In this document: positions 9,059-62,648 of the stretch, piece by piece | How positions within the stretch are numbered: the first letter of the stretch is position 1 | How the letters are laid out: every line of letters begins with the position of its first letter | Assembly (NCBI GenBank): GCA_964464735.1 | Contig: CAYXKF010000003.1 | Location: 3,808 to 67,807 of the forward strand | Direction: 5' to 3' | DNA: 64,000 bases | Source of the DNA: an uncultured Candidatus Saccharibacteria bacterium | GTDB lineage: Bacteria; Patescibacteriota; Minisyncoccia; Phycocordibacterales; UBA1006 | The notes under the pieces: model-generated | Told to the model about the DNA's origin: nothing | What the model saw: the letters and a program-made list of their open reading frames with translations, nothing else | The model's database searches: none | Program-made: the position numbers and the translations under genes

Positions 9059-9086
9059 ACTAATTTATATTATACACGAATAATAA

Positions 9087-12000
9087 TTATTGTGAGCGCT
9101 TTTCAGCAATCTTATTGACCAAGCTCTCGACCCACTGGTGCACTGAAAAGTTTTCAGGATATGCCATAATGGATACTCCATATACTTCTTGTTCCATGAG
9201 GTGAATCTGCTGTTGCAACTTTTCCACCATTGGCATTTCACCCATAAAATCGTTTGTCATAAAATCACGAAGTGGCACATATGTCTGCTGGTCACCTGCG
9301 ACAACCTGATAAAAGTTCGCAACATTTTCAGCGCTGCGGCCTAGGGCCAAGACTGGCTCAAAGATTTTCTCGGCTAGAATGTCCCTGTGCTCAAGGGTCC
9401 TTTCACTAAAGACATCCGCAGCTGCTAGACGTTCGATCGCCTCTTGCGCACCACGGTGGAGATTTTCAGGCGTAACAAAGGCAGAAACAACTTCGTTAGG
9501 ATTGGTATTTGTCGCAGCATTTTCAACTGCTGCCGCTGTAAGATTTTGTGGCGCCTCTTGCTTAATAATGCCTTCAGTAGCATCAGTTTGAACTGTATCA
9601 GTTGCTGTATTTGCAACTCCTTCGGTTACATCTTGCGGCGCAGCTTCAATCGGTGTAGTTTGCGTAATCACTTCGGGTGTCGCGCTAACCGTCGACATGC
9701 CCGGCGGAATTTCTTGTTTGATGATGCCCTCGGTAGCATTTACCACATTTGATGCACCGACCGGCGCAACCTGGTCAATCAGCCTTCCGTCAGGCAACCG
9801 CTCGTCAACCGTACTGGTTCCCTGTGGTACCTCTTGCTTAATGAGCCCTTCGTTTACTGGAGGCACCGGCGTTTGCGGTAGCACGCCCATTTTCTGCAAG
9901 CGCGCATATTCTTCGGGTGAATAATTATCGCGTGATACGCTGTTAAAGTTACTGATCTGGTCTTTAGTCAAAGCGTCAGCATTTTGTGCCGAGCCACCTT
10001 TTGGATCCCAGTACAAGGTGTCTTCTGTGCCGCCAGTTCCATACGACGGTTCAATGCGAGGGGTCGATGCAGCTTGCGATACCCCTGCAGGACGAACTTG
10101 TTGGTTGCCTGTTTGCGAACCATTAGTATGAGTATGGGTTCCAGGATTTGCATGATTATGCGTTTGCGCCGCGCCTTGGCTCATCGAACCTTGTTGCAAA
10201 GGAGCCCCCGCAGCTGCAGCTGTCGCCCTTGCCTTTTCTTCGACAGCTTGTTGTGGAGCACTATAATGTTCAAAGGATTCAAGATCAGTGCGCAGCGGGA
10301 ACCCAAGCATGTTCGCAAGCATCGGCGCGCTGTAATTGTTCATTGTTGGCGGTTGGTAAAAACCAAACTTCGAATGAAATTCGTCCAAGAATTGCGGTGT
10401 CAATTTATTTTCGGCAGCGCGCGCCATCAATTCAAGCGTTACTGCTTTTTGCTCAAGCGACATCTTGCCTTCGGGATACTCCATGATTGTTTGAACAAAT
10501 GCTTTTACCGGGTCAATGGTTGCCTTATTTCCTCCTGCATACAAGTTTGCAAGGAATTTGTCCCCGAGGTCGCGGTCACCATGGAACCAATACGAAGCTA
10601 CAAAACCATGGTCGGTATTAATGCGATCGCGCAGCAATAGATTAAGCGCATTTAGTGCCGGCGAATTTGGACGCGACAAAAATCCAAGCATTTCGTTGTA
10701 ACGCGCATTGCCGGTAAAGTGCGGGAAGTCGACATTTTCAAGCGCTTTAGGATTTGGTGCAGTCGCTGCATTCGTATCAATATTCGTATTGCCACCATTT
10801 TGGCCGCCCGCAGCACCTGGCACTGTTTGTTCAATTAAACCACTGCCAACTTTTGATCCACCAACAGGAACTTGCTGATTACCACCAGTGTTTGTAGTTG
10901 GGTCACTAGGCGTCGTGGTACTGCTTCCTTGCGGAACTTCTTGTTTAATAATACCTTCGTTGTCATTTGGCCCTGCATCAGTATGCGTATCGCTTGGCGC
11001 GCCATCATAGCGATGGAAGTATTCGTGTTTTTCGATACCCGCGGCACCGCCTTCGGTATGCGAACCATCAAGCGTTTCGATGATGCCGCCCTTTGCGTCA
11101 TATTCGACCGAAGTCATGTCGCCGCTACCGTCAAGCTTAAGCACATAAGCGGCACCGACATTATAGGTGCGCACTTCGCCCTCGGGCGTAATGTATCCAA
11201 ATTTTTTCGCAAGCTCGACTGCTTCGTGTCGCGCAAAACTATGCAAGTCATCGCCCGGCTTGTAACCCAATGCAGCCTGTAGCTTAGGATCGTGTTCGAT
11301 CTGGCGCATAAAGGCATACGTAATACCGTCGTTCGGGCGGATTTTTGCCTCAATAGGGATGTCAGGATTAGCCGTTGTTTCAGGTGCTGCCGCTGGAGTT
11401 TTTGGTGCAGGTGATGTTTGGGTATCGTCTGCGCTTTCTTTTGCAGACGGTGCCGGTGTTTCTTGTTTGGCTTCATCAGCAGCCGGTGCTTGTTCGTCAT
11501 GCTTAGGCTGTGCATTTGCGTCACTTGGGTGTTCGGTTGCCGGCGCTTCGGTAGTTGCCGGGTGCGAGCCAAGGTCGACACCGGTTTTTACCTCATGTGC
11601 ACCATGTGATACAGTTGCAGTATCTTGATGACCAAAAAGCTTATCCAAAATTGCTTGCGAATTATTTGCTTGAGATGCAGGCGTACCAGTCGCAACGGTA
11701 TCGATATGTGGTTCTTGCATTGCAATCGTATCAACCGATGGGTTTTGACCCAAAGCAGCTGCAACAGTATCGCGCGACTGCTGTCCGGCTGCAGCCTTTA
11801 GACTATCTTGTGCAGATACACCCCCATTAGTTTGATTACCGTGTTGAGCAACCGTGTCAGTCGAAGGCACGTGCACTTCTTCTTCGACACCCGTGAACGG
11901 ATTTCGAAAATGAATAACGTCCGAGATACCCTTCATAAGAGGCTGCATGTTCTTTGCCTGCTCTTTAAGTATTTCTTGCCCAGTGTCGGTGTGTTCAAGA

Positions 12001-13436
12001 ACAGTACGCGCGATAGAGCCAGCACCAAAAGCACCCAAGCGTGTCGCAACATTAGTTAGGTTTTTATACCATTCTTCCTTAAACTTTAATTGCGCCGCTT
12101 CGCGTTGTACATCGGCAAACGTTTTAGTACCTGCTTCAAGTTCCTTCGAAAGCGCTTCTACTTTTTCTTGGTAAGTACCGCCAGCACCAAATTCGTCTCC
12201 CACTTTCCATTTGGCCTTGCTGATAGCCAACTTTATAGCTGCCGAACTTGCCATCCCCGCACCGGCACCGATCAAAAGCGCAGGAGTAAATACCGCAGCC
12301 GCAGTACCGGCACCTGCAAGTGCGGCAACAATAGCGGCTTTTTTTGTACGCGGATACTTGTCGATCGCCGCCATAATCTTTCCTTTAATAGTATCGTTTT
12401 TTGTTTCCGAAGCATGTGACGGGGTTCCTTCAAGCATCGCCTTAACATCAAACGTTGTCCTGCGATGAGCAAGCCCGCCAATGACAGACGTTACTGCGCC
12501 ACCCGTAGTACCCATGATGCCGCGAAGCCCAAACCCAAGCGTGCCCCAAATTGCGCCACTACGCACTGCCTTGCCAATACCCCCCGTTCCATTAAACCAC
12601 TTAGTAAAACCGCGCACCACATCGCGCGCACTGTTATCAAGTGTCTTATCCAATTGTTCGTGCATGAACTTGCTTTCGGTTTCAGTCAAAACCAGCGCAC
12701 GGTGGTCAGTATTTGCCAACAACGCAAGAGTTGCCAGTCTTTTCTCGGTAGTCAGGATTTCCTTTTGTAAACGATTGACCTCGTTTTGGTCAACACCCGC
12801 AGGATTGCTCATCGCATCACTTAAGGCTTTTTTTCGCTCAGCCAGAAATTGTGTATAAAAAAGGTTTTTTGAATCCAAGCCCTCGGCAAGGATACGTTCG
12901 ATCTGCCGGTTCTTTAATATTTGATAGTCATTAAGCTTCGCTTCGTAGGCCGCTTTCGCTGCAAGCGCCTCTTGTTCGGTCTTTGGCTGAAATCCAAGGC
13001 CCGACATGATGCTTTTCTTGACTTTGATCCATGTTCCTTTGTTTGCCTGGCGTTCAGCCGCAAGATACGCCATTTTCAGTTGGCGCAATTCAGCCATCTC
13101 GACCGAATCGCCTGGCCGGGGCCGGGCACCATCAAGGGGCTTTGCCAGTTGCTGCTTTATGCGATCACGTTTTTCTTCGTCAGTTTCTTCTTGTATTGGG
13201 TTTAAGAGAGCTTCCTGCTCTTCAGGCTCCTCTTCACCCGCGACAGGCTCGACAACCGGCGATTGTTCCACCTGGGTAGTCGTTTGCTGATTGGTGGTAT
13301 TTAAATTGTTTAACAATTGATCAATTGCACCGGCAGTATTTTGCTGTTGAACCTCAAGACCCGCCACGGTGTTATTCGCAGCCTCTATTTGCTGGTTAAG
13401 ATTATTAAGTGCGCTTAGATCAGGAATTCGGTTCAT
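9087..13436 (-). CDS. giant hypothetical protein (1449 aa) with N-terminal coiled coil, glycine-zipper hydrophobic segments and an internal EG(I/L)IKQE(V/I/A)PQG repeat
   Basis: Long uninterrupted ORF. The N-terminus is Gln/Asn-rich coiled coil. Gly-rich helices (GGIGKAVRSGAIWGTLGFGLRGIMGTTGGAVTSVIGGLA; AAIVAALAGAGTAAAVFTPALLIGAGAGMASSAAI). A Pro/Thr/Ala-rich linker. A 4-fold peptide repeat (GIIKQEVPQG-like). A His-rich patch (HNHANPGTHTHT). Confidence 0.8.
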   Translation of the reverse strand: MNRIPDLSALNNLNQQIEAANNTVAGLEVQQQNTAGAIDQLLNNLNTTNQQTTTQVEQSPVVEPVAGEEEPEEQEALLNPIQEETDEEKRDRIKQQLAKPLDGARPRPGDSVEMAELRQLKMAYLAAERQANKGTWIKVKKSIMSGLGFQPKTEQEALAAKAAYEAKLNDYQILKNRQIERILAEGLDSKNLFYTQFLAERKKALSDAMSNPAGVDQNEVNRLQKEILTTEKRLATLALLANTDHRALVLTETESKFMHEQLDKTLDNSARDVVRGFTKWFNGTGGIGKAVRSGAIWGTLGFGLRGIMGTTGGAVTSVIGGLAHRRTTFDVKAMLEGTPSHASETKNDTIKGKIMAAIDKYPRTKKAAIVAALAGAGTAAAVFTPALLIGAGAGMASSAAIKLAISKAKWKVGDEFGAGGTYQEKVEALSKELEAGTKTFADVQREAAQLKFKEEWYKNLTNVATRLGAFGAGSIARTVLEHTDTGQEILKEQAKNMQPLMKGISDVIHFRNPFTGVEEEVHVPSTDTVAQHGNQTNGGVSAQDSLKAAAGQQSRDTVAAALGQNPSVDTIAMQEPHIDTVATGTPASQANNSQAILDKLFGHQDTATVSHGAHEVKTGVDLGSHPATTEAPATEHPSDANAQPKHDEQAPAADEAKQETPAPSAKESADDTQTSPAPKTPAAAPETTANPDIPIEAKIRPNDGITYAFMRQIEHDPKLQAALGYKPGDDLHSFARHEAVELAKKFGYITPEGEVRTYNVGAAYVLKLDGSGDMTSVEYDAKGGIIETLDGSHTEGGAAGIEKHEYFHRYDGAPSDTHTDAGPNDNEGIIKQEVPQGSSTTTPSDPTTNTGGNQQVPVGGSKVGSGLIEQTVPGAAGGQNGGNTNIDTNAATAPNPKALENVDFPHFTGNARYNEMLGFLSRPNSPALNALNLLLRDRINTDHGFVASYWFHGDRDLGDKFLANLYAGGNKATIDPVKAFVQTIMEYPEGKMSLEQKAVTLELMARAAENKLTPQFLDEFHSKFGFYQPPTMNNYSAPMLANMLGFPLRTDLESFEHYSAPQQAVEEKARATAAAAGAPLQQGSMSQGAAQTHNHANPGTHTHTNGSQTGNQQVRPAGVSQAASTPRIEPSYGTGGTEDTLYWDPKGGSAQNADALTKDQISNFNSVSRDNYSPEEYARLQKMGVLPQTPVPPVNEGLIKQEVPQGTSTVDERLPDGRLIDQVAPVGASNVVNATEGIIKQEIPPGMSTVSATPEVITQTTPIEAAPQDVTEGVANTATDTVQTDATEGIIKQEAPQNLTAAAVENAATNTNPNEVVSAFVTPENLHRGAQEAIERLAAADVFSERTLEHRDILAEKIFEPVLALGRSAENVANFYQVVAGDQQTYVPLRDFMTNDFMGEMPMVEKLQQQIHLMEQEVYGVSIMAYPENFSVHQWVESLVNKIAEKRSQ

Positions 13437-13502
13437 ATAATTAGGCAGTTACATTGTAATACAAAGCGGTTAATAAGCAATTTTATGGGCTTATCTTGGC
13501 AC

Positions 13503-16500
13503 CTATTTTTCAATAAGCTTAGCACCAATACCCTTAAGGTAGGTGTTAATATTATCGGTATTTTTCGAATAATTTTTTGTAATCTTAAGCAAGTCGCCAA
13601 CTTCTTCGACAATACCCGCTTTTTCCAATTGGGTGACAATTGCATCACGACGAGGAATAGGAAGACCAAGTTCAATTCCTAATTTTGTAATATCGATTCC
13701 CTTACTATTAGCAGCAAGAATTTTTTTAACCACATCGGTAATTTTTTCATCAACAGCTTCTTTGTTTTCAAGAGGCAACCCAAGTGCCTTAAGTTCGTTA
13801 TCGAATAGTGCATTGATCGAAGCTTTGGCCAAATCCATTGATTTCGAAATAGTGGTATATTCTTTGCCCTTATTATCTTTTGTGATAGCAATATATTTTC
13901 CGTCTTTTAAATTAATACTATTTAAAGCATCGGCACGGCGCTTTTCAATATCAGCTTTTTTCGCTTCAAGGTCGTCAGCAGTTTCTTCTTTTTTTCCATC
14001 AACCAAAGCAAGTTCAGTATCGATAATTTGTTCGATTTTTTCCAATTTATCTTGATTACCCAAAAGCCAGTGAGAAATCATACTTTCGAGCCGAACCGTT
14101 ACTCCACGGTCAGCATAGGTATACTTGCTTGAAAGTAGTTCTTCCACCTTGCCTAGACCACCAACTTTTTCAGCAAGCAGCACGATCTTATCAACTAAAA
14201 CAGACGTAAGAATCTCAAGAGCTCTTTTATCTTTATTGTACAAAGCCTGAACTTTCGGCAATTCTTTTTTTGCATTCTCGACAGCCTGATCCCCTAGCGT
14301 GGCGTTACTAATCCACGGCCCGCCAAGATGCTGATAGGTTCCCGAATCAGCATATGATCCATCGGGATTTAGCCGGATAAAGATATTAGTATCAGGTACA
14401 AGATATTCTCTTTTCTCTAAAATCTTTTTGATCATTTCAATCGTCTTTACTACTGCCTCGGGCCTTGGTCGTTCTTTGATATCAGCATCTTGCGTCTCGA
14501 TATCGTCCACTGGATCATCCGCATCGATTCCCCGTCGTTCTTCTTTCGATTGTTTTGAACCAGCCCCATCTCCTAAAAACTTGACTGCAACCGGTTTTAT
14601 TACTTGCCATACACCATTTACTAGTTGTGCTTCGCCGTAAGCAACTAATTGAATCTTTTTCGTATCGCTTGTTGGTTTATTGAGAAGCATAACGCTTGGA
14701 TTATTAAGATAGTATTCCCAATTGCCGTCAGTAAAGACATATTTTTGAACGCTTGGATCTTTTGAGATTCCCAAAAACGCCTTATGATCCTCTTTTTGGA
14801 CTAACAATTCAAAAATCTGTTCGCCGTTTGAGGCTTTGCGTGCATCAATCGAATTAAATCCTCCATTGACCGGGATTTTACAATACAATTTATGAGTAAA
14901 TGGCGGCTCGACGGGTTCAATTGTTTCTTTTTTCTCATCAACTGTCGGCGCATCGCCCCAATACATCTCGCCGCCACTTTCAAGTACTAATTTTCCATTC
15001 TCAGTTTTATAAATAATCGGTTTTGTAACGGTAATTTTAGACGGGCACTCTTTTGGTTGTGCATTTAATATCTTAAAAACATTATACAAAATGAGTTCAG
15101 GTGAAGCATACGCGGCGGCAAGGGCACGCTTGGTATTTGCGAAGGTCATTTCCATTCGACCATTTGGCAACGCTTTTCCATGATAAAATATAGAGGATTC
15201 ATCTTCTGGAGACATTTGTGCTACAGAGATAGGAAAACTTCCATCGGCATTAGGAATTGGAAAATACCAGATTTTGCCTTTGGTTTCTTTTTGTTCGGGA
15301 CTATTGGCATTAAGACCCTGCAAAGCGTCGTCAAGGCGCTTATCATATGCAAGGTAATTATCAATCTTGATTTCAAAAGGCAAAGTTTGGGCTTCGGCAA
15401 CATATTGTTCCTTAATGCCCTTAAGTTTTACATCAAGATCATTATATTCAATACCTGACGACAAGTAGTCCTTAAATTCTTGACCATAGCGATGTCCTGA
15501 AATCCCTCGTTCGCGCACAGCTTCATTCAGTGAATCATAAAATCGTTTATTAAAATCTTGTTCAATGATTGTTTTCCCACGGTTCTTTAATTTATGCTCA
15601 AAAGACTGTGCTATCTCATGCATTTGCACAAATGCAACTTTATCCATATCAGGCAACTTTTGCCCTAATATATTTTTTACATTTTCAAATTTCCTCGCAA
15701 CATCATTATATGTCCCGGTTAATTCATTTTCAGCATATAATTTTGTCCATTGAGCAGCCACGTCCGACAACTGTGCGATTTGAGTTCCTTTATAAGTAAT
15801 TGCCGTAGGTGTTACCTCATAGTCACTTGTTCCAACCTTTCCTAACGGAAGGTCCAGTGCATATTCCAATGTTTCTGTTTTCGCCTTTTTCTCGAAACGA
15901 TAATCAATAACCCCGCCCATTCCTTTTTCGGCTTTTAGTTCGTAACCAGCAAGTTCGCTCCAGGTTGCTAAGTCGTCGGCAACTTGTTTGTCAGTGGTCG
16001 TAAACGAACCGTTTTTAATTTGCTGAATAAACGACTTACGCACTGCTTCGCTGTATTTAGGATGCGCCTGTTTTTCAACAAGCTGTAATTGGCCAAACGC
16101 GTAAGCCTTAAATAGTTCGTCTTTTGGATACGTCTTAATAACACCCGATGCATTTTTTAGTTCATAACCCCTAGCTCCCGACGAAGCTAACGCGTAAGTG
16201 TCGCCATCGACAACAAAATCGTGCGTAGAAATTGCGTTTAAAATATATGTCTTAATACTTGCAGCTACTTTTTTATACTCCTCTTCGCGCGCATCATTAA
16301 GATCCTTAAGTTGCTGTTTGGCGTTTTGCAATTTTTCGGCACCTTCTTGCTTAACACGCTGTAGCGTCGCAACAAGTTCGGCGTTTGTTTTTGGAAGACT
16401 GTCGGCAGCAAGTCCAAGCGCAGCAAGCTGCTCGTTTGTCATGCCCTTAAACATGTCGGCGATTTTTTGCGCTTCGGCATCAATGGTATTGGCATCAAGG

Positions 16501-16664
16501 GACGCGTCTAATTGCTGCATCGCAGCAAGTACCGTTTCGTCTTTTTCAAGTGCTTTCTTTTTGGCCTCGATATTCTTTGCATGCGTAATTGCCTGCTCGA
16601 GCATGTTGGGGGTTACCCCTTTTTCCTTAAGCATTTTTACCAAGTCGCGTGCTTCAAAACCCAT
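13503..16664 (-). CDS. giant hypothetical protein (1053 aa) with C-terminal winged-helix resembling the FtsK gamma domain
   Basis: Long ORF with no Walker motifs. The C-terminus (ITKLGIELGLPIPRRDAIVTQLEKAGIVEEV) resembles the FtsK-gamma / wHTH consensus (..LQR.L.IGY.RAAR.ID.LE..GIV). Confidence 0.75.
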   Translation of the reverse strand: MGFEARDLVKMLKEKGVTPNMLEQAITHAKNIEAKKKALEKDETVLAAMQQLDASLDANTIDAEAQKIADMFKGMTNEQLAALGLAADSLPKTNAELVATLQRVKQEGAEKLQNAKQQLKDLNDAREEEYKKVAASIKTYILNAISTHDFVVDGDTYALASSGARGYELKNASGVIKTYPKDELFKAYAFGQLQLVEKQAHPKYSEAVRKSFIQQIKNGSFTTTDKQVADDLATWSELAGYELKAEKGMGGVIDYRFEKKAKTETLEYALDLPLGKVGTSDYEVTPTAITYKGTQIAQLSDVAAQWTKLYAENELTGTYNDVARKFENVKNILGQKLPDMDKVAFVQMHEIAQSFEHKLKNRGKTIIEQDFNKRFYDSLNEAVRERGISGHRYGQEFKDYLSSGIEYNDLDVKLKGIKEQYVAEAQTLPFEIKIDNYLAYDKRLDDALQGLNANSPEQKETKGKIWYFPIPNADGSFPISVAQMSPEDESSIFYHGKALPNGRMEMTFANTKRALAAAYASPELILYNVFKILNAQPKECPSKITVTKPIIYKTENGKLVLESGGEMYWGDAPTVDEKKETIEPVEPPFTHKLYCKIPVNGGFNSIDARKASNGEQIFELLVQKEDHKAFLGISKDPSVQKYVFTDGNWEYYLNNPSVMLLNKPTSDTKKIQLVAYGEAQLVNGVWQVIKPVAVKFLGDGAGSKQSKEERRGIDADDPVDDIETQDADIKERPRPEAVVKTIEMIKKILEKREYLVPDTNIFIRLNPDGSYADSGTYQHLGGPWISNATLGDQAVENAKKELPKVQALYNKDKRALEILTSVLVDKIVLLAEKVGGLGKVEELLSSKYTYADRGVTVRLESMISHWLLGNQDKLEKIEQIIDTELALVDGKKEETADDLEAKKADIEKRRADALNSINLKDGKYIAITKDNKGKEYTTISKSMDLAKASINALFDNELKALGLPLENKEAVDEKITDVVKKILAANSKGIDITKLGIELGLPIPRRDAIVTQLEKAGIVEEVGDLLKITKNYSKNTDNINTYLKGIGAKLIEK

Positions 16665-16696
16665 AGCTGCAATTATACATGGTTTACTGTTTCATG

Positions 16697-17992
16697 CTAT
16701 CGCAAAATAGTGCGAAGCTGGTCGTCCGTCATCGACTTAACGGTTGCCGTGTCCGAACTGTAAGCGTTGATCTCGATATGCAAATGCTGACCGTGCCCCG
16801 GCTGGCTTGCATTGATGCCGGTATGACCAACGGTACCAATTGTAGCGCCTGCAGTGATCGCATCACCCGGCTTTACCTTTACCTGCTCAAGATGCGCATA
16901 GCGGTAAAAATAATTTTTATCTGGGTTATACATAATGACCGTATTTCCGCCCTTCATCGAGCTGGTCGAAAGCGAATCGTCCTTGGTCCACGAACTTTCC
17001 GCCAAGACTACAATGCCGCGTTCCATGGCGTTAACAGGATTTCCTTCGTGCGTAAACAAATCAAGCGCGTCGTGATGGTTTTCGCCCGCTCCAAAACTAA
17101 ATACCTTAAGTGGCTTAGTGCCCGCAATATCAGCTATTTGCGCATCATAAAAGCGTTTTCCCAGGTATTCGATATATTTTTTGCGCACATCTTTGGTAAC
17201 ATACGGCGATATTTCGCGCACAATAATTGATTGCGGAGTCAGCGAATCGTGTGCCTTATGATACACATATTCGTCCGAATAATATAACACTGATACCACG
17301 TACGGGTTTGCCAACGCGATTTCAGGGCTTTCGCCCGAAGCTATTTTAGAAAGCGTATCGCGGGCATTGGCAATGATGGTTTCCATACGCTGGCGCATTT
17401 CGATAGAAAACTGTTCCATCCCTTTTTGGTTTATCGGATGAATATCAGCTGACGTACTTTCTGACGGTTGGGTTTTTGCATCCTTTGTGTGGCCAGGATT
17501 ATTTTTGGATGTTTTTTTGTCACTAGAATCATCTAACAGTTCACTAATGCCATAGGCGCCCGCCGCAGCGGCGACGGCGCCTATGCCAAGGAACTTTAAA
17601 AACTTGCCGCGTGGCATAGTACTTGTTTCGTTTACCGGCGCTTGATGCGTATCGGTATCGACTAAAGCTGACTCGTCTACTGTATTAGTATTTTCTTGCA
17701 CCACAGCTTCTCCTGCAGTATCTTCAGCAATTGGATTATCAATCTTTGCATCTTGTTGATCTGTCGATGCTGGGTTTAAAAGAGCCTCAAGTTCTTTTCT
17801 TTGCTGCAAGACGCTGCGTTCAAGATCGGCAAGATATGCTTCAAGTTCGATTTTATTTTTTGGAGTGCGATCACCAAGATTAATACCTTTGTTTGCCAAA
17901 AACTCCCTGATCTTTTTTGCTTCAGCGGTTTCAACATTATTGTTTGGTATGACATTTTCCCGCACCATAATAAGCAAGGGTTGCTTACGCAA
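16697..17992 (-). CDS. membrane-anchored M23 family metallopeptidase (LytM-like)
   Basis: C-terminal M23 signature with the HxH motif (GATIGTVGHTGINASQPGHGQHLHIEI). A central TM helix (FLGIGAVAAAAGAYGI). The N-terminal region is coiled coil. Confidence 0.85.
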   Translation of the reverse strand: MRKQPLLIMVRENVIPNNNVETAEAKKIREFLANKGINLGDRTPKNKIELEAYLADLERSVLQQRKELEALLNPASTDQQDAKIDNPIAEDTAGEAVVQENTNTVDESALVDTDTHQAPVNETSTMPRGKFLKFLGIGAVAAAAGAYGISELLDDSSDKKTSKNNPGHTKDAKTQPSESTSADIHPINQKGMEQFSIEMRQRMETIIANARDTLSKIASGESPEIALANPYVVSVLYYSDEYVYHKAHDSLTPQSIIVREISPYVTKDVRKKYIEYLGKRFYDAQIADIAGTKPLKVFSFGAGENHHDALDLFTHEGNPVNAMERGIVVLAESSWTKDDSLSTSSMKGGNTVIMYNPDKNYFYRYAHLEQVKVKPGDAITAGATIGTVGHTGINASQPGHGQHLHIEINAYSSDTATVKSMTDDQLRTILR

Positions 17993-19580
17993 ACTTTACT
18001 GCCAACGTATCGCTTTTTAATTTAATGCGTGCAATCTTTTTGCCAAGCTTCCCTTCAAGATATTCTTTAAGCTTGTCACCCAAGCTGTTTAATTGATCAA
18101 GAGGGATTTTTGATTTCACTAAACTATTCGCATCGATCTTAAGACTTTTTGGATCAACGGCAATGGTATCATCTTGATTATCGATTATCGCAAAGATATG
18201 GGGGCTCCCAACAGCAAGACCTTTTAGCCCAACACCTTCGAACTGCGCATTAATGTGCCAATTTAATACTCCTGCGTCGATGTGCAAACTTGAAAGCTTT
18301 ATAGGCTGACCTTTTATGACATTAGCTAGAAGATTTTTTATTTCTGCTTCGATATCACGTACAGCATATTCGACATCAAACTTATTTCGCTCGATTTCTT
18401 CAGCAATGGCCTTATCACCGACTTCAGGCTGCTCAAGCATGTTGTTTTGCCTAAACCATTCAAGGGCGTCCTTGTCTGATGTGAAGGAAAAATGTTTAGG
18501 CTCTACACCAGACATAATAGCCAAGATTTCCTGAAAACCGGCACCGCCCCGGCGAAGCATGGTTTCAAGTGTTTGCCCATGATTACTCCACGCATAAATT
18601 TCGTACGGAAGTATCGTATCCCATTTTATAAAATATGCATTAGGATATTCACTGCTCATGATTGGATATCCTTTTGGATATTTTTTCTTCATGTATTCTA
18701 GTTTTTCCGCGTACGGCAATTTAAATGAATTAAAATCGATACCCGAAGAGTCTTTCATTTCCATATACGTAATACCTCCGCGGACTTTTGTATGTGGATA
18801 TTTTTCAAGATGAGCCCTAAGAAGCTTTTGTATTTCAGGATCAAGCGCTGCAACATCTTCTATGGTTACATTACTTTTTGATTTAAGTTTTTCACTGATT
18901 AAATTCAAAGATTCGATGCCCATGTCGCGCGCTAAATTATGAGGCACTCCAAATTGGTTAAGCTTGTTTGCAGTTTCTTGCTCGGCAGATTCACTAATAA
19001 CCTCAGGTTCTTCTTTTTTATCTTCAGACGTAGTTTCTTCGACAACAGGCGCAGCTTCTACTACTGGTTCAATCGGAGCAATTGGCTGTTCGTCTTTTAT
19101 TTCTTCTTTACTTGATTCCTCTTCTTTAGGAGTTTCTTCGACAACAGGTTCAACTGATTCAGCGACAGGAGCTACCTCATCCACAGCTGGCATTTCTTCA
19201 GCTGCTGGTTTTTCGGCTTCGTTAAATAACTGCATCATTTCATCGAGCTCGGCTTTTGTTTTTGGCCAAACCTCAGTAGGAATATCACTGATATCTATTT
19301 TAAGCGTGTTTACCAAATATGCTTTTAGATCTTCGATATTAAACTCAATCGGTTCAGATTCGACGACTGGCGTAGAAACTTCAATAACCGGAGTTTCACT
19401 AGCAGCTGCCACTTCGGCTTCCCTTGCCTTTTCTTCTGCCTCTTTTCTACGCCGTTCCATTTCGGCAGCTGCCCTTTGCTTTGCCACTGCTTCCGCTCGC
19501 TTAAACGCAGCTCGAAACTGTTCGGCCGTGATGCCTTTTTTATTGTTCTCGACTGCAAGTTTGTTTGGATTGAACATCAT
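17985..19580 (-). CDS. hypothetical protein (531 aa) with acidic Glu/Pro/Val-rich N-terminal low-complexity region
   Basis: Clean ORF overlapping the downstream gene by 8 nt and starting 5 nt after the upstream stop. The PVVE/EEPE repeat region is followed by a globular C-terminal domain. Confidence 0.7.
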   Translation of the reverse strand: MMFNPNKLAVENNKKGITAEQFRAAFKRAEAVAKQRAAAEMERRRKEAEEKAREAEVAAASETPVIEVSTPVVESEPIEFNIEDLKAYLVNTLKIDISDIPTEVWPKTKAELDEMMQLFNEAEKPAAEEMPAVDEVAPVAESVEPVVEETPKEEESSKEEIKDEQPIAPIEPVVEAAPVVEETTSEDKKEEPEVISESAEQETANKLNQFGVPHNLARDMGIESLNLISEKLKSKSNVTIEDVAALDPEIQKLLRAHLEKYPHTKVRGGITYMEMKDSSGIDFNSFKLPYAEKLEYMKKKYPKGYPIMSSEYPNAYFIKWDTILPYEIYAWSNHGQTLETMLRRGGAGFQEILAIMSGVEPKHFSFTSDKDALEWFRQNNMLEQPEVGDKAIAEEIERNKFDVEYAVRDIEAEIKNLLANVIKGQPIKLSSLHIDAGVLNWHINAQFEGVGLKGLAVGSPHIFAIIDNQDDTIAVDPKSLKIDANSLVKSKIPLDQLNSLGDKLKEYLEGKLGKKIARIKLKSDTLAVKFA

Positions 19581-19585
19581 ATATA

Positions 19586-22084
19586 TTATGCGTTTTTAGC
19601 CTCAACGCTGTAACGACCATCAGGATTTTTGATCTCTTTAAGAATGTCCTCGGCCGGTTCTTTTGAATACACTTGGTCTCCGTCGATTTTTCGCATGTGT
19701 ACCATTAATTTCCCGTCAACATTTTTTTTGATTTCATTTATTTTTAACAATGCCCCTGTCTTAGTCTTTAAAAGCACATTCGCAAATAGCTTTGCCGCTT
19801 GATCCGAAGAAATTTCGCTGTTGGTTTTTAAAATCTCGGCAACCCAGCGGGTATTAGTGTCAAGCGCTGACAAATCTTCTTTTGCCTCGATTGGCCGATC
19901 TTCGACTGCCGGGTTAACTTCTTCTTCGTTTTCTAAAGCTTCAGGTACACCTTCGACAATCTCGATATATGCAATTTGGTCACCAGTTTTTAGTGTCGAA
20001 CCTTCGGCAACGGTAAAGTGAATAATACCTTCTTCGGGCGCTTTCCATTTTATGGGACCGGCAAGAGTCATAAATTCGGCAATCTTATCCCCTTTCACGA
20101 CAGGTTTTCCATCAGCTATAAGATATTTAGTTAATGTAATTTGAGCTTCTTTTTCGTTTGCAAACGCCCGCACTTCTACCATTTTAGGAGCATCGTCACT
20201 GGTTTCTTCTTGCTCAGGGACTGGCGCATGTTCTTGCACCGATTCTTCTGGGTTAGTAACAGGCTCATCTTCTACTACTGGTTCTTGAACAGAATTTTCT
20301 ACTTTTGTTACTTTTGCCGCTTCTACTGCAGCATTTTCTTTTGCTTGCAGGTGCGCACCAAGCGAAGAAACAACCGAACCAAGCGTTTCGTGCGCTTTCA
20401 TTTTATGTTCTACCTGAAGCAATTCGGTAAAGTTTTTAGGAAGTTCGTCATCTGAAAACTGAGAAACATCAATGCCCAGGTTTTGGTATTCTGTGCAAAG
20501 CGCCTCAACCAAAAATTGCCGTTCAAGAATTTCTTGTTCAGAATATTTTTGCTCAAGCGGATTCACAACTTTTCTATCAGCCAAAGTTTTCTTCAAAAAT
20601 CCTACACGTGCTTCAAGAAGTTTGTTGCGAATTTCGTCACGAATTTTTATCAATTCGTTCACATGTTTGGCATTGGGCTTTTTATTTGCACTTTCAATTT
20701 CGGCATCAATCTTTTTCAGATCACGTTCAAGCTCTTGAATCGGCTGATCAGGATGCACAATGGTTTTTTCAGCAACGGTGTCGGCATAGTTTACATCAAA
20801 ATCCACATTCGGAGATTTGGCATATTCTTTAGCAAGGCGCTCCCTGATTGCGCCTAACTCATATTTCTCGGCCCGTGAGCGCTCTTCCTCTTCAGTTCTG
20901 CTTGTTACAGAAAGGTTATTCACTAATAAAAAGTTCTCAATGTCTTTATAGGCAATAATAAAATCTTTACCGTTAACATACTTCTTTTTCGAATCATCGT
21001 AATCGCGTTCAATAAACCGTACATACCATTTACCAAGGCCATCAATGAAAAACTTTTTCGTTTTTGAATCACCCCCTACCGGCGAAGACTCCGATAATTC
21101 CACACCAAGACGAAGCACGACATATTTTCGGGATTGTTCCAAAAATATTTTCTTGTCCGGAAACTTCCTCTCTTGAGCACGCAGTTCCTTAAACTCATTT
21201 TGGCGTTCTTTTAATCTTTCAGCATAACCATCAGCGGCATCCAGCTTTCCAGATTCTTTGGCCATTAACACTAGCATCTCAAGGTCCTGGATTTCTTCTG
21301 CTAAGCGATCAGGCGAATGGGCACGCTTAAATGCAGCATGCTGTGGTTCAGTAAATTCATGCCGAACTAGATAGTCATGTAAGTTTTTATCTCGACTATG
21401 ACGCTGGACCGTATCAATGTGTACCTGCTTCATACTATTAAGCGTGAAGTCAGGTCTTTGAATGTCTTTTTGACGAAGAAGTTCACGCATAACTTCTTTC
21501 AGCGCCAAACCATAGCGCTTTGAATTTGTCGAAGCAGGGAGTTCGCTAAACTCATCGACTAGCCGAAGCATATTATCAACCGACGAAAAATAATACTTTT
21601 TAAATTCATCGAAGCTTGAATAGGCTTTTTGCAATCTTTTGATGCGATACTCTTTGTCTTTTTTCTCATTATCAGTTTTTGCCGAACTTGCTTCGACTTG
21701 GATTTTTCTGATAAGACTATTAGCTATATCACCCTTGAATTTTTCATACAAAAACCTGAGTGTTCGCTTAAGAACCTCTCGGTCATTACCAATAACGTTT
21801 TCGATTGAAAAGGGTTGTTTTTGGTGCAATGCAGCGCTGGCAACTTTTTTATACTTCGTTTTATCAACAGGAGTACTCATTCGCTCCAAAGCACGTTTAG
21901 CCTCATTGTCCTGTTTGCTCTTTTCATCAGCGCTGAGCGCTTTAATAAACTCTATTTCTTCTCGTGTTTCTGGTTTAATGGGAAAGTTTTTTAAATCTAA
22001 GCCAGCCTTATACTTTAAACGTACATGCGAGTCGTTTTTATTAAGAGAGCGGGAGCCAGTTGAGATAATTTCTTCTCGAGGCAT
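19586..22084 (-). CDS. hypothetical protein (832 aa) with biotinyl/lipoyl-like hybrid-barrel segment near the C-terminus
   Basis: First gene of the minus-strand operon. Contains a segment (KGDKIAEFMTLAGPIKWKAPEEGIIHFTVAEGSTLKTGDQIAYIEIVEG) resembling a biotinyl/lipoyl-like barrel fold. The rest is charged coiled-coil-rich sequence. Confidence 0.7.
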   Translation of the reverse strand: MPREEIISTGSRSLNKNDSHVRLKYKAGLDLKNFPIKPETREEIEFIKALSADEKSKQDNEAKRALERMSTPVDKTKYKKVASAALHQKQPFSIENVIGNDREVLKRTLRFLYEKFKGDIANSLIRKIQVEASSAKTDNEKKDKEYRIKRLQKAYSSFDEFKKYYFSSVDNMLRLVDEFSELPASTNSKRYGLALKEVMRELLRQKDIQRPDFTLNSMKQVHIDTVQRHSRDKNLHDYLVRHEFTEPQHAAFKRAHSPDRLAEEIQDLEMLVLMAKESGKLDAADGYAERLKERQNEFKELRAQERKFPDKKIFLEQSRKYVVLRLGVELSESSPVGGDSKTKKFFIDGLGKWYVRFIERDYDDSKKKYVNGKDFIIAYKDIENFLLVNNLSVTSRTEEEERSRAEKYELGAIRERLAKEYAKSPNVDFDVNYADTVAEKTIVHPDQPIQELERDLKKIDAEIESANKKPNAKHVNELIKIRDEIRNKLLEARVGFLKKTLADRKVVNPLEQKYSEQEILERQFLVEALCTEYQNLGIDVSQFSDDELPKNFTELLQVEHKMKAHETLGSVVSSLGAHLQAKENAAVEAAKVTKVENSVQEPVVEDEPVTNPEESVQEHAPVPEQEETSDDAPKMVEVRAFANEKEAQITLTKYLIADGKPVVKGDKIAEFMTLAGPIKWKAPEEGIIHFTVAEGSTLKTGDQIAYIEIVEGVPEALENEEEVNPAVEDRPIEAKEDLSALDTNTRWVAEILKTNSEISSDQAAKLFANVLLKTKTGALLKINEIKKNVDGKLMVHMRKIDGDQVYSKEPAEDILKEIKNPDGRYSVEAKNA

Positions 22085-28728: not shown

Positions 28729-28853
28729 ACGCTATAATTTTGATTAGAAAATTGGTTCCAGAATCTTGATTTTATATTACTCCCCGAACCTAATGGATGT
28801 CAAATGATAAAAGGGCCCCTTAACAAGTGGCCCTTTTTAATCCATATAAAAAG

Positions 28854-29186
28854 TCATGGAAAATGTATTACCGCTGCTTCTGCCCCTAATACGTCATCAT
28901 CTTTGGATAATTCTTTAAAATCAGTTGTTGCAAGAAATGTCGAGCGGAGGCTGATTCCCAACCCCATATGTGGCCGGTATTCTACTTCAAATGAATAGCT
29001 AAAACGGTAAATAAAATATCTTATCATTTTCACCATATCAGGATCAGACTTATGAAAATAAAGTAAGCCTGATAAAAAGAAAAAAATGATAACGGGGTCA
29101 AATACGTCAAGTAGCTTCATACAGTCTGTTTTAATGTTAATTAATGCAATGGTTAATTGATATGATACATCTGCGTATGCAACCAT
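28854..29186 (-). CDS. hypothetical small membrane protein
   Basis: 110-aa ORF with one hydrophobic helix (VIIFFFLSGLLYF). No homology recognised. Confidence 0.3.
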   Translation of the reverse strand: MVAYADVSYQLTIALINIKTDCMKLLDVFDPVIIFFFLSGLLYFHKSDPDMVKMIRYFIYRFSYSFEVEYRPHMGLGISLRSTFLATTDFKELSKDDDVLGAEAAVIHFP

Positions 29187-29238
29187 GCAACCTATCGTTA
29201 TTTTTTGTTCGAAAGTAAAAACATGCTACAGTTACCCT

Positions 29239-30045
29239 ATGAAAATTTTTTGCTGGAACGTGAATGGGGTCCGCGGCACACACAAGGCTGACAAACTGCT
29301 GTCGCATTTTGAATCGGGCGAATATGATTTTATTTGCCTACAAGAAACCAAGGCCGAGTTTGAACAACTGCCCGAAGAGCTAAAAAATATTTCGGGATAC
29401 TTTCCCGTTTTTTCACACTCGAAAAAGAAAAAAGGATACAGCGGGACCGCAATCTATTCGAAGCAAAAATTGTTATCAGTCATTTATGACTTTCCCCCCG
29501 CGATTGCAAAAAAGTTTCCGATGCACGAAGACCAGTATGGCGACCCCGATAACGAAGGGCGCTTGATTACTGCCGAGACCGAAAAATTTTTTTTAGTAAC
29601 AGTGTACACGCCAAATTCGAAGGGGGACCTTTCGCGATTAAAGCTAAGACACACGCTTTGGGATCCAGCATTTTTGGAATACATGAAGCTGCTTGAAAAA
29701 ACCAAGCCCGTTATTTTTTGCGGCGACCTAAATGTTGCGCATACCGAGGACGACCTAGCTAATCCAAAACAAAACGATGGCGAACATGGATTCACTAAAG
29801 AAGAGCGCGAAGGTATCGACAAGATAATTGCCGCCGGGTTCATCGACGCGTTTCGGTTGTTTAAAAAAGGAAAAGGATTTTATACCTGGTGGGCGCCGTA
29901 CGCCAAGGCGCGCGAGCGGAATGTTGGCTGGCGTATTGATTACTTTTTTGTATCCCAAGAATTAAAAAGCAAAGTAAAAGGCTGCGAAATTTTACCCCAT
30001 ATTATGGGTTCGGACCATTGTCCGGTTGTATTGGAGTTAAAATAA
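29239..30045 (+). CDS. xth: exodeoxyribonuclease III / AP endonuclease (Xth family)
   Basis: The N-terminus MKIFCWNVNGVRG...DFICLQETK and the C-terminus WRIDY...SDHCPV are the EEP-fold ExoIII signature. I trimmed the start to the ATG at 29239, which lies 6 nt after a -10-like TACAGT. Confidence 0.9.
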   Translation: MKIFCWNVNGVRGTHKADKLLSHFESGEYDFICLQETKAEFEQLPEELKNISGYFPVFSHSKKKKGYSGTAIYSKQKLLSVIYDFPPAIAKKFPMHEDQYGDPDNEGRLITAETEKFFLVTVYTPNSKGDLSRLKLRHTLWDPAFLEYMKLLEKTKPVIFCGDLNVAHTEDDLANPKQNDGEHGFTKEEREGIDKIIAAGFIDAFRLFKKGKGFYTWWAPYAKARERNVGWRIDYFFVSQELKSKVKGCEILPHIMGSDHCPVVLELK

Positions 30046-30058
30046 AATCAAAAGTATT

Positions 30059-30340
30059 AGTGCCAGTTTTTTATCAAACCTTTCCAAAAAACTCGAATAT
30101 TTGCCTGCTGGCAAATTTCGTCCACCTCGGCACCAAGCCCCTGCGATGAGCTTTTTGGAAAGGTCTGACGGGGTTCTTTTTAACGCAAATACATCACGCT
30201 CTCTAAAAATAAAAGTACCCGCTTACTTCAGAAAATCAACCGATCCAACCTTTTTTAAAAAGCTCGCCGGAGGCCAAGTGCCTGTTTGAGGGCTTTAGGA
30301 TCGGAGGAACCGCGCGAGCACGCGCGGATTCTGGTTTTTT
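30059..30340 (+). repeat. copy 1 of a ~290-nt structured repeat element (candidate ncRNA gene or MITE-like element)
   Basis: About 85% identical to 61664..61965 over the first 120 nt and the last 60 nt. Contains the hairpin ATTTGCC-tgct-GGCAAAT, the long-range pairing CTTTCCAAAAAACTC/GAGCTTTTTGGAAAG, and the 3' hairpin CCGCGCG-agca-CGCGCGG followed by a T-run. Lies between convergent xth and the aminopeptidase gene. Confidence 0.75.
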
Positions 30341-30443
30341 AAAAGGGTTGGATGAAAACTGGTACGATCTCTACATTATCTCAAGACCATCTCAAAAGTT
30401 GAGTACGACTCACACGCTCAAAAACTCCCTATGTTTCAATGTT

Positions 30444-31688
30444 TCACACCGTAAATCGCCCACGCTTGTACACAACCTTTTGCGTCCCGTCGTGCATGTG
30501 TGCAACCACGGTTCGATCAATAGTCGAGATAACATCGGTATGTACAACCGAGTCGTTATACCCCATCTTTTTCCATCCCGCCTTACTAACTTTACTTGGA
30601 TCGCCATCGTAACAATCGTGATAACTATTACCAACGGCGATATGTGTATTACCAAATGGCCCACCGACGTTTTCGTCGTATAGCGTATCTGCCATAAATT
30701 TAGTGATGCGCGACAAACGGTTATCGGTCAGCGACCACTCGCCCACTTTGTCAGCATTGCGCTGGGCAATCATCTCGCGAAGCACATGCTGGTTCTTTTT
30801 TGCGGTTGCATGGGCAACAACGCCATTTTTAAATTCCAGCTTAATTCCTTCGATGCGCGTACCGTGGTAATACAAGGGCTGGTTAAACGCGATCCATCCG
30901 TTGGTACCGCGCCAATCGGGTGACGTAAAAAGTTCAAAGCTTGGGATATTACGCCCCGAACCGCCAACCCACTTACGGTCTTTTCCAAGCTTAAACGTAA
31001 TGTCACAATCGGCGCCGTACATATGAAAGTAGTCTGCCCTTTTGGTAACCGCGTTCATAAACTGTTCAAACTTTTTAAGCTTTGCAAAAAGCGCTTGCCA
31101 CTTTTGTACCGGCTTTGGCGCGTCCAAGTAACACGCTTTGATGATTTGGTTCCAGTATTCAGTATGCGTAAGCTTTGCTTCACGCGCCATTTGCGGCGTA
31201 CCATACAGCGCCAACGTCCAGGTAAACTTTCCGGCATTTTCTTTTTTGATCAGCCAGTCGCGGTACGGTTTTGCGCTTTTGCCGCTTTCCATGATCTTTT
31301 TTGGATCTACCCCATCAAGCCCATGCGGATGCGTTTCGCTGATGATGTAAATTTGATGGTCGATCGTTTCGGCCATCGCCTTAAATATTTTTTTTGGAAA
31401 AAATGACAGCTGGTCGCTATCGGCAATTTCAAAGAACTCGCGGCTTAGGTTGCATTCTTCGGTATCGTCAGGAATGTAATGCCCAACAACATGGCCACCC
31501 GACTTTAATACTGCCTTGCGCAGTTCTTGGTACAGCGGCTTTGCGTATTCGTGGCAGGCAACGCGCACTACGTCACCTTTTTTAATTCCGTTGCCGTTAT
31601 TAAGCGCAAAGTTCACTAATATGTGCGCATAGCGTTCAAGCACTTTTTGGCTTGGGCGAAATTCGCCCGATTTCTTTTTGGTCGTCAT
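30444..31688 (-). CDS. aminopeptidase, M29 (AmpS/PepS-like) family
   Basis: The N-terminus (ERYAHILVNFALNNGNGIKKGDVVRV) and overall length match thermophilic-metalloprotease M29 aminopeptidases. The upstream stop is 6 nt away. Confidence 0.6.
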   Translation of the reverse strand: MTTKKKSGEFRPSQKVLERYAHILVNFALNNGNGIKKGDVVRVACHEYAKPLYQELRKAVLKSGGHVVGHYIPDDTEECNLSREFFEIADSDQLSFFPKKIFKAMAETIDHQIYIISETHPHGLDGVDPKKIMESGKSAKPYRDWLIKKENAGKFTWTLALYGTPQMAREAKLTHTEYWNQIIKACYLDAPKPVQKWQALFAKLKKFEQFMNAVTKRADYFHMYGADCDITFKLGKDRKWVGGSGRNIPSFELFTSPDWRGTNGWIAFNQPLYYHGTRIEGIKLEFKNGVVAHATAKKNQHVLREMIAQRNADKVGEWSLTDNRLSRITKFMADTLYDENVGGPFGNTHIAVGNSYHDCYDGDPSKVSKAGWKKMGYNDSVVHTDVISTIDRTVVAHMHDGTQKVVYKRGRFTV

Positions 31689-33368: not shown

Positions 33369-33400
33369 GTAGCCGCTTTTTTAATGCGGCTACTTTTTTA
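33369..33400. terminator. bidirectional terminator between convergent genes
   Basis: GTAGCCGC-ttttttaat-GCGGCTAC with T-runs on both sides. Confidence 0.65.
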
Positions 33401-33444
33401 TTAACTTCAGCCTACTAGTACACTGATACTAAGAGCAAAAGAAC

Positions 33445-36792: not shown

Positions 36793-37092
36793 ACAGACAA
36801 GAACAGAAGTAGCAATGTTTACACAGTAACGAAGTTCACTTTGTCAAATACGTCGTTTTTAAGTTTTAGGCCAAAGATTTGCAAAATCTTTATCACACAA
36901 AGGCTCTTAAACCACAGTTTTTGACCCTTGTGGATAATCCTGTTACTTTGGGGGAAAAGGACGTCCTTTTGACGGTTAGAATTTTTAAACGACAATACCA
37001 AAAAAGACGCATAAAAGTCATACACAATAAGGGTTTTCTAACACTTTTGCCATAAAAAACAGTCTTAAAATGTTTCACGTGAAACATGTTTC

Positions 37093-43027: not shown

Positions 43028-43185
43028 ATGAGGCAAAAGTTAATCAAAAAGGGCTCCTGTAAAAGGGGCCCTTTTAATTATAGAAAAGCTTTACATTTCA
43101 AGAATATCTGATACTATGCGTCCATTGCCTTTGGGCCTTTTTTTATGCCTAAAAGCCTTATTATTTAAGCCCGATTAATAAACTC

Positions 43186-60729: not shown

Positions 60730-61647
60730 TTATTTGTGAGTACGAAGTGGGATGATAAAAGTATTCGCAGATACGTTTGACACATCCGAAATAACGGCAA
60801 CCAAATCTTCTTTTGCATCATTCTTATCAAGCGTTGCTGACGCAGTGATACCAAAATCGTTCTGAGCAATTGCAGTCTTTGCAACTTCTTTTGCACCGTT
60901 AATTGTTTGGATGCTTACTGATCCAAAAGCGCTTCCATTAGTATTCCAGCCATGCTGGCAAAGCACAGTATCTTTTTGTGCGAATTTCAACGTAACAACA
61001 TTTGCATCATTTGATGCGACATACAACGTATCGCTGCTTGGGCCAAACGAACATGCACTAAATGACAACAGGTGCGCAGGAATATTTGCCGTCCGAAGCG
61101 CTTCGACGCGTTCAAGCGATGCGACGCCCATATCGGCGATAATCGATTTTGCAGCAGCCACTTGCGCTTCAAATTCGGCAATGGTTTCTTTTGCGGCATT
61201 TTTTCGGTACGCAACCATGGCGGCAATAGTTTGAGCCAATTGATCCTCATCGTCGGCAATTGTCACCTTTGCAGCAATGTTTGCATCGGGCGTATACGCA
61301 TCTTCAAGTGCCCCCATATACTGCGAAGTCTCGGCAAGATACACCGATGCGGTAGTGAATTTTTGGATCACCTGATCAATAATTGCAAGCGCATCCGCAG
61401 AAAGGGGAGTGCGCGCATCGACACCCAGGCGTTCGCGGATATTTTCGCGGCGTTCGGTCGAAGCGTTCAATTTGCTTTGAAAGAATGACGAAATGATGCC
61501 GTCGTCGGCAAATGCCGGACTGGCCAAAAGAAAAGAGCCCAAAAAGCCCACAGATAATATAGCTATATACTTTTTCATACTGCATGACACTTTAGCATAC
61601 CTGTGGTAAAAAATCAAGCTTTTGCATACAAATATTAGATTTGTCAA
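60730..61647 (-). CDS. secreted hypothetical protein (305 aa)
   Basis: Signal peptide MKKYIAILSVGFLGSFLLASPAFA. Ala-rich. No recognisable domain. Confidence 0.55.
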   Translation of the reverse strand: MTNLIFVCKSLIFYHRYAKVSCSMKKYIAILSVGFLGSFLLASPAFADDGIISSFFQSKLNASTERRENIRERLGVDARTPLSADALAIIDQVIQKFTTASVYLAETSQYMGALEDAYTPDANIAAKVTIADDEDQLAQTIAAMVAYRKNAAKETIAEFEAQVAAAKSIIADMGVASLERVEALRTANIPAHLLSFSACSFGPSSDTLYVASNDANVVTLKFAQKDTVLCQHGWNTNGSAFGSVSIQTINGAKEVAKTAIAQNDFGITASATLDKNDAKEDLVAVISDVSNVSANTFIIPLRTHK

Positions 61648-61663
61648 GTTTTAGAGTGATTGG

Positions 61664-61965: not shown

Positions 61966-62047
61966 AAAAAGATTAACCAAAAATTGGCACCTGTATTTAT
62001 GACTGACACTTAACTTCCTTGTCTTTTCTCTATGCTATAATCCCCGC

Positions 62048-62630: not shown

Positions 62631-62648
62631 ATCAGTGTACTAGTACAC
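62631..62648. repeat. 18-bp perfect palindrome CAGTGTACTAGTACACTG
   Basis: Self-complementary 18-mer between convergent NUDIX and ppa genes. An imperfect copy CAGCCTACTAGTACACTG lies at 33405-33422 next to another bidirectional terminator. Confidence 0.5.

Follow-up and report, generated by a model that had tools for sequence, protein, structure and literature searches.

Two homologous intergenic loci

The DNA analysed here, referred to as the window, is a single stretch of 64 kb. It carries two regions, 30052-30373 and 61655-61998, that share a strand, are separated by about 31.6 kb, and can be aligned with one another. An earlier note on this DNA had described the same pair of homologous copies but with narrower limits (30059-30340 and 61664-61965); the elements proved to be longer, and their outer ends were found to pair, GTGCCAGTTTT (30060-30070) with AAAACTGGTAC (30355-30365) in the first region and GGTGCCATTTTT (61663-61674) with AAAAATTGGCACC (61979-61991) in the second. 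The contexts differ, as the note had stated: (i) the first region is flanked by convergent genes, xth (29185-30045, plus strand) and an M29 peptidase gene (30444-31688, minus strand); and (ii) the second is flanked by divergent genes, a hypothetical gene (60730-61647, minus strand) and a NUDIX gene (62048-62593, plus strand). The homologues of xth are Paceibacterota-like, which identifies the organism as a Patescibacterium, with the nearest in the protein collection at only 69% identity. The promoter of the NUDIX gene is positioned after the second region, and the gene is apparently leaderless (window 62031-62050), with an extended -10 element, TGCTATAAT, followed 6 nt further by the ATG and no Shine-Dalgarno sequence.

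Alignment of the two regions revealed conserved ends and a diverged middle. The left block (30082-30190 versus 61684-61792) is 86% identical over 109 nt, a 32-nt perfect match (GAGGAACCGCGCGAGCACGCGCGGATTCTGGT) is located at 30304 and 61929, and the central parts do not align. Exact and near-exact searches of the 64-kb window placed these sequences at the two loci only, with none expected by chance (0 matches for a 29-mer and 0.12 matches for a 14-mer). Two further observations of the note were reproduced, the coordinated swap that turns the hairpin ATTTGCC-tgct-GGCAAAT of the first copy into ATCCGCC-tgct-GGCGGAT in the second, and a long-range helix, CTTTCCAAAAAAC.../...GTTTTTGGAAAG, that is present in both. 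The right half of each locus is inside a long helix of which the sequence differs between the copies and the pairing is kept in both. Identity between the copies is 84% and 66%; the copies are old, and each still keeps its fold. The predicted folding energies (MFE) of the whole elements correspond to z-scores of -5.1 (first) and -10.1 (second) relative to shuffled sequences, with the minus strands folding about as well as the plus strands.

Each locus is a pair of inverted modules

Each locus was found to consist of two homologous modules of about 130 nt, inverted and back to back, with their 5′ ends toward a variable spacer. When read from the centre outward, the halves of a locus align with one another and have in common an A-tract, a variable arm, a hairpin of the form GAA-N7-AGCA-N7-A-UUC with a bulged A, a U-run, and a tail. 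The modules measure 120-140 nt and the spacers 52 and 77 nt, the latter being mutually unalignable. The 3′ tail of the module ends in AAAA(C/U)UGG(C/U)AC, and the 3′ tails of paired modules are the complementary termini of the doublet. The features are as follows, with covariance-model (CM) scores and MFE values in kcal/mol; CM R1 was built from the window modules alone.

30052-30373, unstranded: doublet 1 (left module, spacer, and right module); CM R1 matches at 30052-30180 (minus) and 30233-30373 (plus)
30052-30180, minus (sense): module c1L; CM 134.1 and 127.7 bits; MFE -49.2 on the minus versus -36.1 on the plus strand
About 30148-30169 with 30073-30094, minus: helix H1 of c1L, which includes the long-range helix of the earlier note
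30095-30119, minus: hairpin a of c1L, GAA-AUUUGCC-AGCA-GGCAAAU-A-UUC (pattern match, pair counts); ATTTGCC-tgct-GGCAAAT on the plus strand
30181-30232, unstranded: spacer of doublet 1, 52 nt; unalignable with the spacer of doublet 2; no sigma-70-like promoter found
30233-30373, plus (sense): module c1R; CM 133.8 bits; MFE -50.0 on the plus versus -38.2 on the minus strand
30278-30292, plus: variable arm (hairpin b) of c1R, carrying GUGCCUGUUUGAGGG, common to c1R and c2R
30307-30331, plus: hairpin a of c1R, GAA-CCGCGCG-AGCA-CGCGCGG-A-UUC; the "terminator" hairpin of the earlier note
30060-30070, unstranded: outer terminus of doublet 1, GTGCCAGTTTT; complement AAAACTGGTAC at 30355-30365; TIR-like
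61655-61998, unstranded: doublet 2 (alignment, CM matches)
61655-61782, minus (sense): module c2L; CM 132.4 bits; MFE -57.5 on the minus versus -48.6 to -48.8 on the plus strand
61697-61721, minus: hairpin a of c2L, GAA-AUCCGCC-AGCA-GGCGGAU-A-UUC (pattern match, pair counts)
61783-61859, unstranded: spacer of doublet 2, 77 nt, with a predicted hairpin of its own
61860-61998, plus (sense): module c2R; CM 137.1 bits; MFE -61.1 on the plus versus -51.0 on the minus strand
61932-61956, plus: hairpin a of c2R, same sequence as hairpin a of c1R
61663-61674, unstranded: outer terminus of doublet 2, GGTGCCATTTTT; complement AAAAATTGGCACC at 61979-61991

Because the halves are inverted homologous modules, the tgct and agca hairpins are one feature seen on opposite strands, and the apparent "closing" helix of the whole element and its "central" helix likewise follow from ends that are inverted homologues. 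A degenerate pattern derived from the four window halves, GAANNNNGCSAGCASGCNNNNATTCNNGTYTTT, had exactly four matches in the window (30087-30119, minus; 30307-30339, plus; 61689-61721, minus; and 61932-61964, plus), with none expected by chance. Local alignment of left with right modules in the same orientation gave z-scores of up to 9, which rose to 18-27 via metagenomic intermediates (up to 20 via the contig L051); these scores connect all six modules, the four of the window and the two solo modules described below, in one orientation.

The module folds as a covarying three-way junction

The module is a three-way junction formed by helix H1, an arm made up of H1b (4 bp) and the variable hairpin b, and hairpin a. 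H1 spans about 20 bp, with the A-tract paired to the U-tract, and hairpin a rests on a GAA/UUC base and carries a bulged A and an AGCA tetraloop that does not vary. RNAalifold analysis of the four window modules gave 34 pairs, 14 of which displayed double changes. Covariation was assessed on six distinct modules from three organisms, with the four window modules and two metagenomic modules aligned to the model (alignment A7). Standard pairs occupied 93.9% of the cells, compared with 77.4% in column shuffles (none of 500 reached the observed value) and 33-57% with slid partners, and two-sided changes were detected in 20 of the 34 pairs versus 9.0 expected, in an alignment that was fitted to the model. 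The earlier note's view of the element as strongly structured, with compensatory changes, was supported. By hand segmentation, H1b was found to be paired in every one of the six modules, each time with a different sequence (CAUC/GGUG, CACC/GGUG, CCGG/UCGG, UCGC/GCGA, UCGC/GCGG, and UUGC/GCAG), and the unpaired junction nucleotides GCA, GA, and (G)A were conserved. Hairpin a is identical across organisms, with that of c1L equal to that of the solo module in L050 and that of c2L equal to that in L051; the remainder of L051 is closest to c2R, and thus the module family is a mosaic. Since H1 covaries over its whole length, the selected molecule is the full module.

The fold was also found to depend on the strand. 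The left modules fold better as minus strands (by 9-13 kcal/mol) and the right modules as plus strands (by 10-12 kcal/mol), and the sense strand is favoured in all six modules (by 6-13 kcal/mol). Counted over the six modules, each read outward, the 34 pairs comprise 166 Watson-Crick, 20 G·U, and 1 A·C. Read on the plus strand, the left half has six A·C mismatches, which the minus strand turns into G·U pairs, and the consensus fold of the whole element reaches -74.8 kcal/mol with 80 pairs on the minus strand versus -59.8 kcal/mol with 60 pairs on the plus strand. Thus, the selected structure forms on one strand only, which is minus in the left module and plus in the right module, and these strand-specific folds contradict a single plus-strand RNA. 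The plentiful G·U pairs would favour RNA rather than single-stranded DNA as the selected strand.

Solo modules and distribution

A metagenome scan with the module pattern identified four contigs, representing two distinct modules, all in Patescibacteria. These solo modules matched CM R1 over the full model at E = 1e-7 to 1e-9, and matched CM R2, which was built with the two solo modules included, at about 1e-19. Solo 1 (L051, also L048, L052, and L053) is situated in a CPR type IV pilus operon, with the pilC stop codon upstream and the pilin promoter downstream. Solo 2 (L050, also L049) has a small ORF upstream and a 23S rRNA gene about 780 nt downstream, and precedes the consensus TTGACA-17-TATAAT promoter of that gene. 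Both solos are 90-100 nt past the stop codon of a co-directional gene and ahead of the next promoter, and no partner module was detected near either, even with filters off.

The pilC site was compared with that of relatives. The pilC-pilin gap is 414 nt in L051 versus 158, 118, 153, and 165 nt in four relatives whose PilC proteins are 81-82% identical, a difference of 249-296 nt, and a CM scan of the pilC-pilin DNA of three of those relatives gave no match. The pilin promoter and its TTATCCACA box are kept in L054 and L055. A site about 250 nt shorter in four relatives indicates insertion or rapid gain and loss of the module. The roughly 230-nt insertion of L051 that holds the solo module also includes two direct repeats, GTTTTGTATTTCCAAC and GCTTTGTATTTGTATCTCCAAC (1959-1981 and 2024-2050), similar to the ancestral pilC-pilin spacer as in L054; these may reflect duplication of a target or a scar left by rearrangement. 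The DnaA-box-like TTATCCACA(CC) lies immediately upstream of the pilin promoter both in L051 (2159-2170, with the module) and in L054 (10200-10211, without it). The sequences TATCCACACCC and TATCCACG were seen after solo 2 (L049, 147-166), and the TTATCCACA-type box may be a transcription-factor or DnaA site at strong CPR promoters. This box is not enriched in the window, which has a single exact copy (36929-36937, minus). A replication origin or terminus was considered for the elements and rejected, as GC skew tracks gene strand and DnaA boxes are not enriched.

Further searches gave no additional members. The window holds four modules only, and a CM scan of about 120 kb of other Patescibacteria loci found none. 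No element was present downstream of xth in relatives; in L046, a related genome where the integrase-methyltransferase-xth synteny is kept, about 940 nt upstream of xth (9064-10000) has no called gene, and the CM detected no module there. A scan of GTDB species representatives for the right-arm motif, GTGCCTGTTYGAGGG...GGAACC, returned 42 loci, all of them chance or coding matches (Nostoc, Gemmatimonadales) and none with the GC hairpin; this motif proved lineage-specific. Viral contig scans with five patterns, including IMG/VR, gave no true match (L043 and L058-L083 being chance matches), and blastn against phage and plasmid collections gave nothing. Among about 40 ORFs from the window, no transposase, Y1_Tnp/RAYT/HUH gene, or reverse transcriptase was found; no parent IS with matching termini was found within the window, and no direct repeat that would mark a target-site duplication was visible when the flanks of either doublet were read directly. 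A literature search found no account of interspersed structured repeats in Patescibacteria. The modules form a small family of dispersed intergenic elements of Patescibacteria (CPR) that had not been described before.

Relationship to known repeats and RNA motifs

The closest structural parallels are the REPINs and BIMEs of Pseudomonas and Enterobacteria, in which palindromic, hairpin-capable units are inverted around a less conserved spacer. Published REPINs are strictly extragenic inverted doublets with compensatory changes in the paired units and decayed singlets (PMC3116915); likewise, compensatory changes are common in the modules, and solos occur beside doublets. REPINs fold in single-stranded DNA or RNA. 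The differences are substantial. A REP unit is a simple hairpin of about 20-40 nt with tens to hundreds of copies per genome and is tied to a RAYT transposase gene, whereas the module is a three-way junction of 120-140 nt (3-6 times the REP length) with four copies in 64 kb and no RAYT or HUH gene in this window; the two also share no sequence similarity, and their hosts belong to different phyla.

ERIC/IRU, Correia, RUP, BOX, and bcr1 repeats resemble the modules as intergenic imperfect palindromes of 100-160 nt. ERIC-type repeats share with the modules their conservation across species at differing locations. They also vary in presence at orthologous sites, for which the modules offer one clear case, at pilC. 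Such repeats are transcribed together with adjacent genes and can change the stability of the mRNA (PMC3184786). A repeated intergenic terminator-type element from the same work (PMC3184786) combines, like the module, an A-tract and a GC hairpin with a U-run; in the module, however, a gap separates the U-run from the stem, the U-run and the A-tract covary, and the conserved helix runs on beyond the U-run. With MITEs, which have TIRs and target-site duplications and often a cognate IS, the doublets share TIR-like ends, but no duplication or IS was found; moreover, a MITE folds as a single long hairpin, whereas the module fold is branched and strand-specific, and the doublet combines two units, each of them a palindrome in itself. 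Copies of active MITEs also tend to be near-identical, unlike these at 84% and 66%. Finally, orphan RNA motifs (Weinberg/Breaker sets, Rfam) are similar to the module in having a covarying, strand-specific fold and conserved loop and junction nucleotides; an inverted doublet with an insertion-like distribution is atypical for such motifs, and there was no Rfam 15 match at E <= 10.

Dispersed structured repeat as the leading interpretation

The inverted doublet, the solos, the varied intergenic sites, the insertion-like distribution, the compensation, and the invariant hairpin together follow a REPIN/BIME, ERIC, and MITE-like logic. We therefore put at about even odds (probability near 0.5) the interpretation that the doublets are a REPIN/BIME/ERIC-like dispersed, non-autonomous structured repeat. 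Counting against it are the low number of modules (four in 64 kb), the lack of further ones in about 120 kb of other Patescibacteria loci, the age of the copies, the length of the unit, the missing target-site duplication, the lack of a transposase in the window, and the conserved unpaired junction purines, which are more typical of a functional RNA. The fallback offered in the earlier note, a structured MITE, is near this interpretation; its other proposal, one plus-strand RNA of about 290 nt, was not supported by the dyad and strand evidence. If the doublets are such repeats, the module unit would spread, or once have spread, within genomes non-autonomously, a trans-acting protein would recognise the single-stranded fold, chiefly at hairpin a, and copies would persist by landing in neutral spacer DNA between the end of a gene and the next promoter. 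With read-through from an upstream gene, the sense module could form a very stable 3′ structure that might protect or delimit that transcript.

Patescibacteria genomes are very small and gene-dense, and for this reason a structured doublet of 320 nt kept twice within 32 kb, its fold preserved by dozens of compensatory changes, needs explaining. If the element is mobile, it would point to an unrecognised CPR transposition system, possibly one that works through single-stranded DNA; as an RNA, the element would be a new motif with a well-defined and testable fold. The CM and the degenerate pattern make a CPR-wide census feasible. We also entertain, tentatively, a reading that unites the two, in which the module is a new functional class of three-way-junction RNA in CPR, marked by the AGCA-tetraloop hairpin and the conserved junction purines, that binds a specific protein or ligand and was carried on, or turned into, a mobile inverted-pair module. 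If true, an RNA-level element would be both dispersed and structurally selected at each site.

Alternative explanations

In the foremost alternative, possible though on balance doubtful, the modules would be small structured RNA genes of one family. Each module of about 130 nt would function independently, binding a protein or ligand via the junction and the AGCA hairpin, and a doublet would be a divergently transcribed paralogous pair. Consistent with this are the strand-specific fold with its many G·U pairs, the tetraloop and unpaired junction nucleotides conserved in three organisms, the long maintenance of the structure in every diverged copy, the covariation throughout H1, and the sharing of hairpin a between organisms. 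Known RNA families were not recovered, in line with the earlier note: Rfam 15 at the gathering threshold gave three tRNAs only across the whole window; at E <= 10 it gave chance microRNA-like hairpins only for both doublets and both solos; and a search for tRNA and tmRNA at both loci gave nothing. By inspection, the core or architecture of hammerhead and other small ribozymes, the kink-turn, SRP, and 6S was a mismatch, as it was for an integron attC, invertible switch, retron, and TnpB or IscB guide RNA. Neither the spacers nor the DNA upstream of the solos yielded a sigma-70-like promoter, though clear consensus promoters lie nearby, and the modules have no canonical terminator after them; independent transcription of the modules is thus unsupported. 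A sigma-54 promoter at the TGGCAC termini was also considered and rejected, as the -12 element is missing. The recognisable promoters of the downstream genes (NUDIX, pilin, and rRNA) are all positioned after the modules, and therefore the modules are not 5′ leaders. The distribution is likewise unfavourable to RNA genes, given the absence of the module from the pilC-pilin site in the three relatives scanned and the gap shortened by about 250 nt in four of four, the lack of copies in about 120 kb of related genomes, and the mutually unrelated contexts.

A terminator-like element in the manner of the pneumococcal SPRITE, with the doublet serving as a branched intrinsic terminator or insulator pair for the flanking genes, is unlikely, although several features invite it. 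Hairpin a and its closing CUC/GAG pairs are followed by a U-run and preceded by an A-tract, and the solos sit after a co-directional stop codon and before the next promoter. The earlier note had interpreted the GC hairpin and U-tract at the end of both copies as an intrinsic terminator. The hairpin is indeed identical in the two copies; however, (i) it is the homologue of the tgct hairpin; (ii) the U-tract does not adjoin it, beginning 7 nt past the GC stem and 3 nt past the junction-closing pairs; (iii) in two of the six modules (L051 and, in the second copy, c2R) the U-run reads UCUUUG, and the A-tract has changed to compensate; and (iv) the U-run is one strand of the longer H1, of which the covariation, with G·U pairs, extends about 10 bp further, indicating that the selected strand is not cut at the U-run. 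A terminator scan rated copy 1 as marginal and rejected copy 2. Furthermore, doublet 2 lies between divergent genes and has no incoming transcript to end, transcripts entering doublet 1 must first traverse the antisense of the other module, and the conservation of tetraloop and bulge sequence across organisms is unexpected for terminators. The genome's own canonical terminators are compact GC stems abutting T6, with A/T-run flanks and often bidirectional, as at window 33371-33399, 28809-28839, 43046-43075, and 62696-62741. Since no other recognisable terminator was found for the convergent xth and M29 peptidase pair, the doublet may have some exapted role at that site. Adjoining canonical terminators between convergent genes, a perfect palindrome, CAGTGTACTAGTACACTG, and a diverged copy of it were also noted (62633-62650 and 33409-33426).

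The model first proposed for these loci, one plus-strand noncoding RNA of about 290-320 nt per locus with a terminal helix and a GC-hairpin terminator, is very improbable. Its support is that the whole element folds well and that the outer ends pair; these helices, terminal and central, are automatic from inverted homologous modules, the minus strand folds equally well and gives the better consensus fold, the six A·C mismatches of the left half are G·U pairs on the minus strand, solo modules exist, and the terminator is weak. As this case shows, a "two-copy ncRNA" that is in fact a dyad can be misread in its strand as well as in its unit.

A small protein gene formed by the overlapping ORFs (30101-30289 and 61664-61924) can be dismissed, as the note had argued, since one frame is open over the left block in both copies but the right conserved block shifts frame in copy 1, a 1-nt indel interrupts the conserved block, the starts are TTG and GTG with no ribosome-binding site, the substitutions follow helices and not codons, and a profile of the two ORF translations had no homologue among 5.8 billion proteins.

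Elsewhere in the window, positions 9087-22084 (minus) hold a run of very large ORFs (1449, 1053, 531, and 832 aa) that have no Pfam match and lie beside M23 peptidase genes, probably a CPR-specific surface or envelope cluster.
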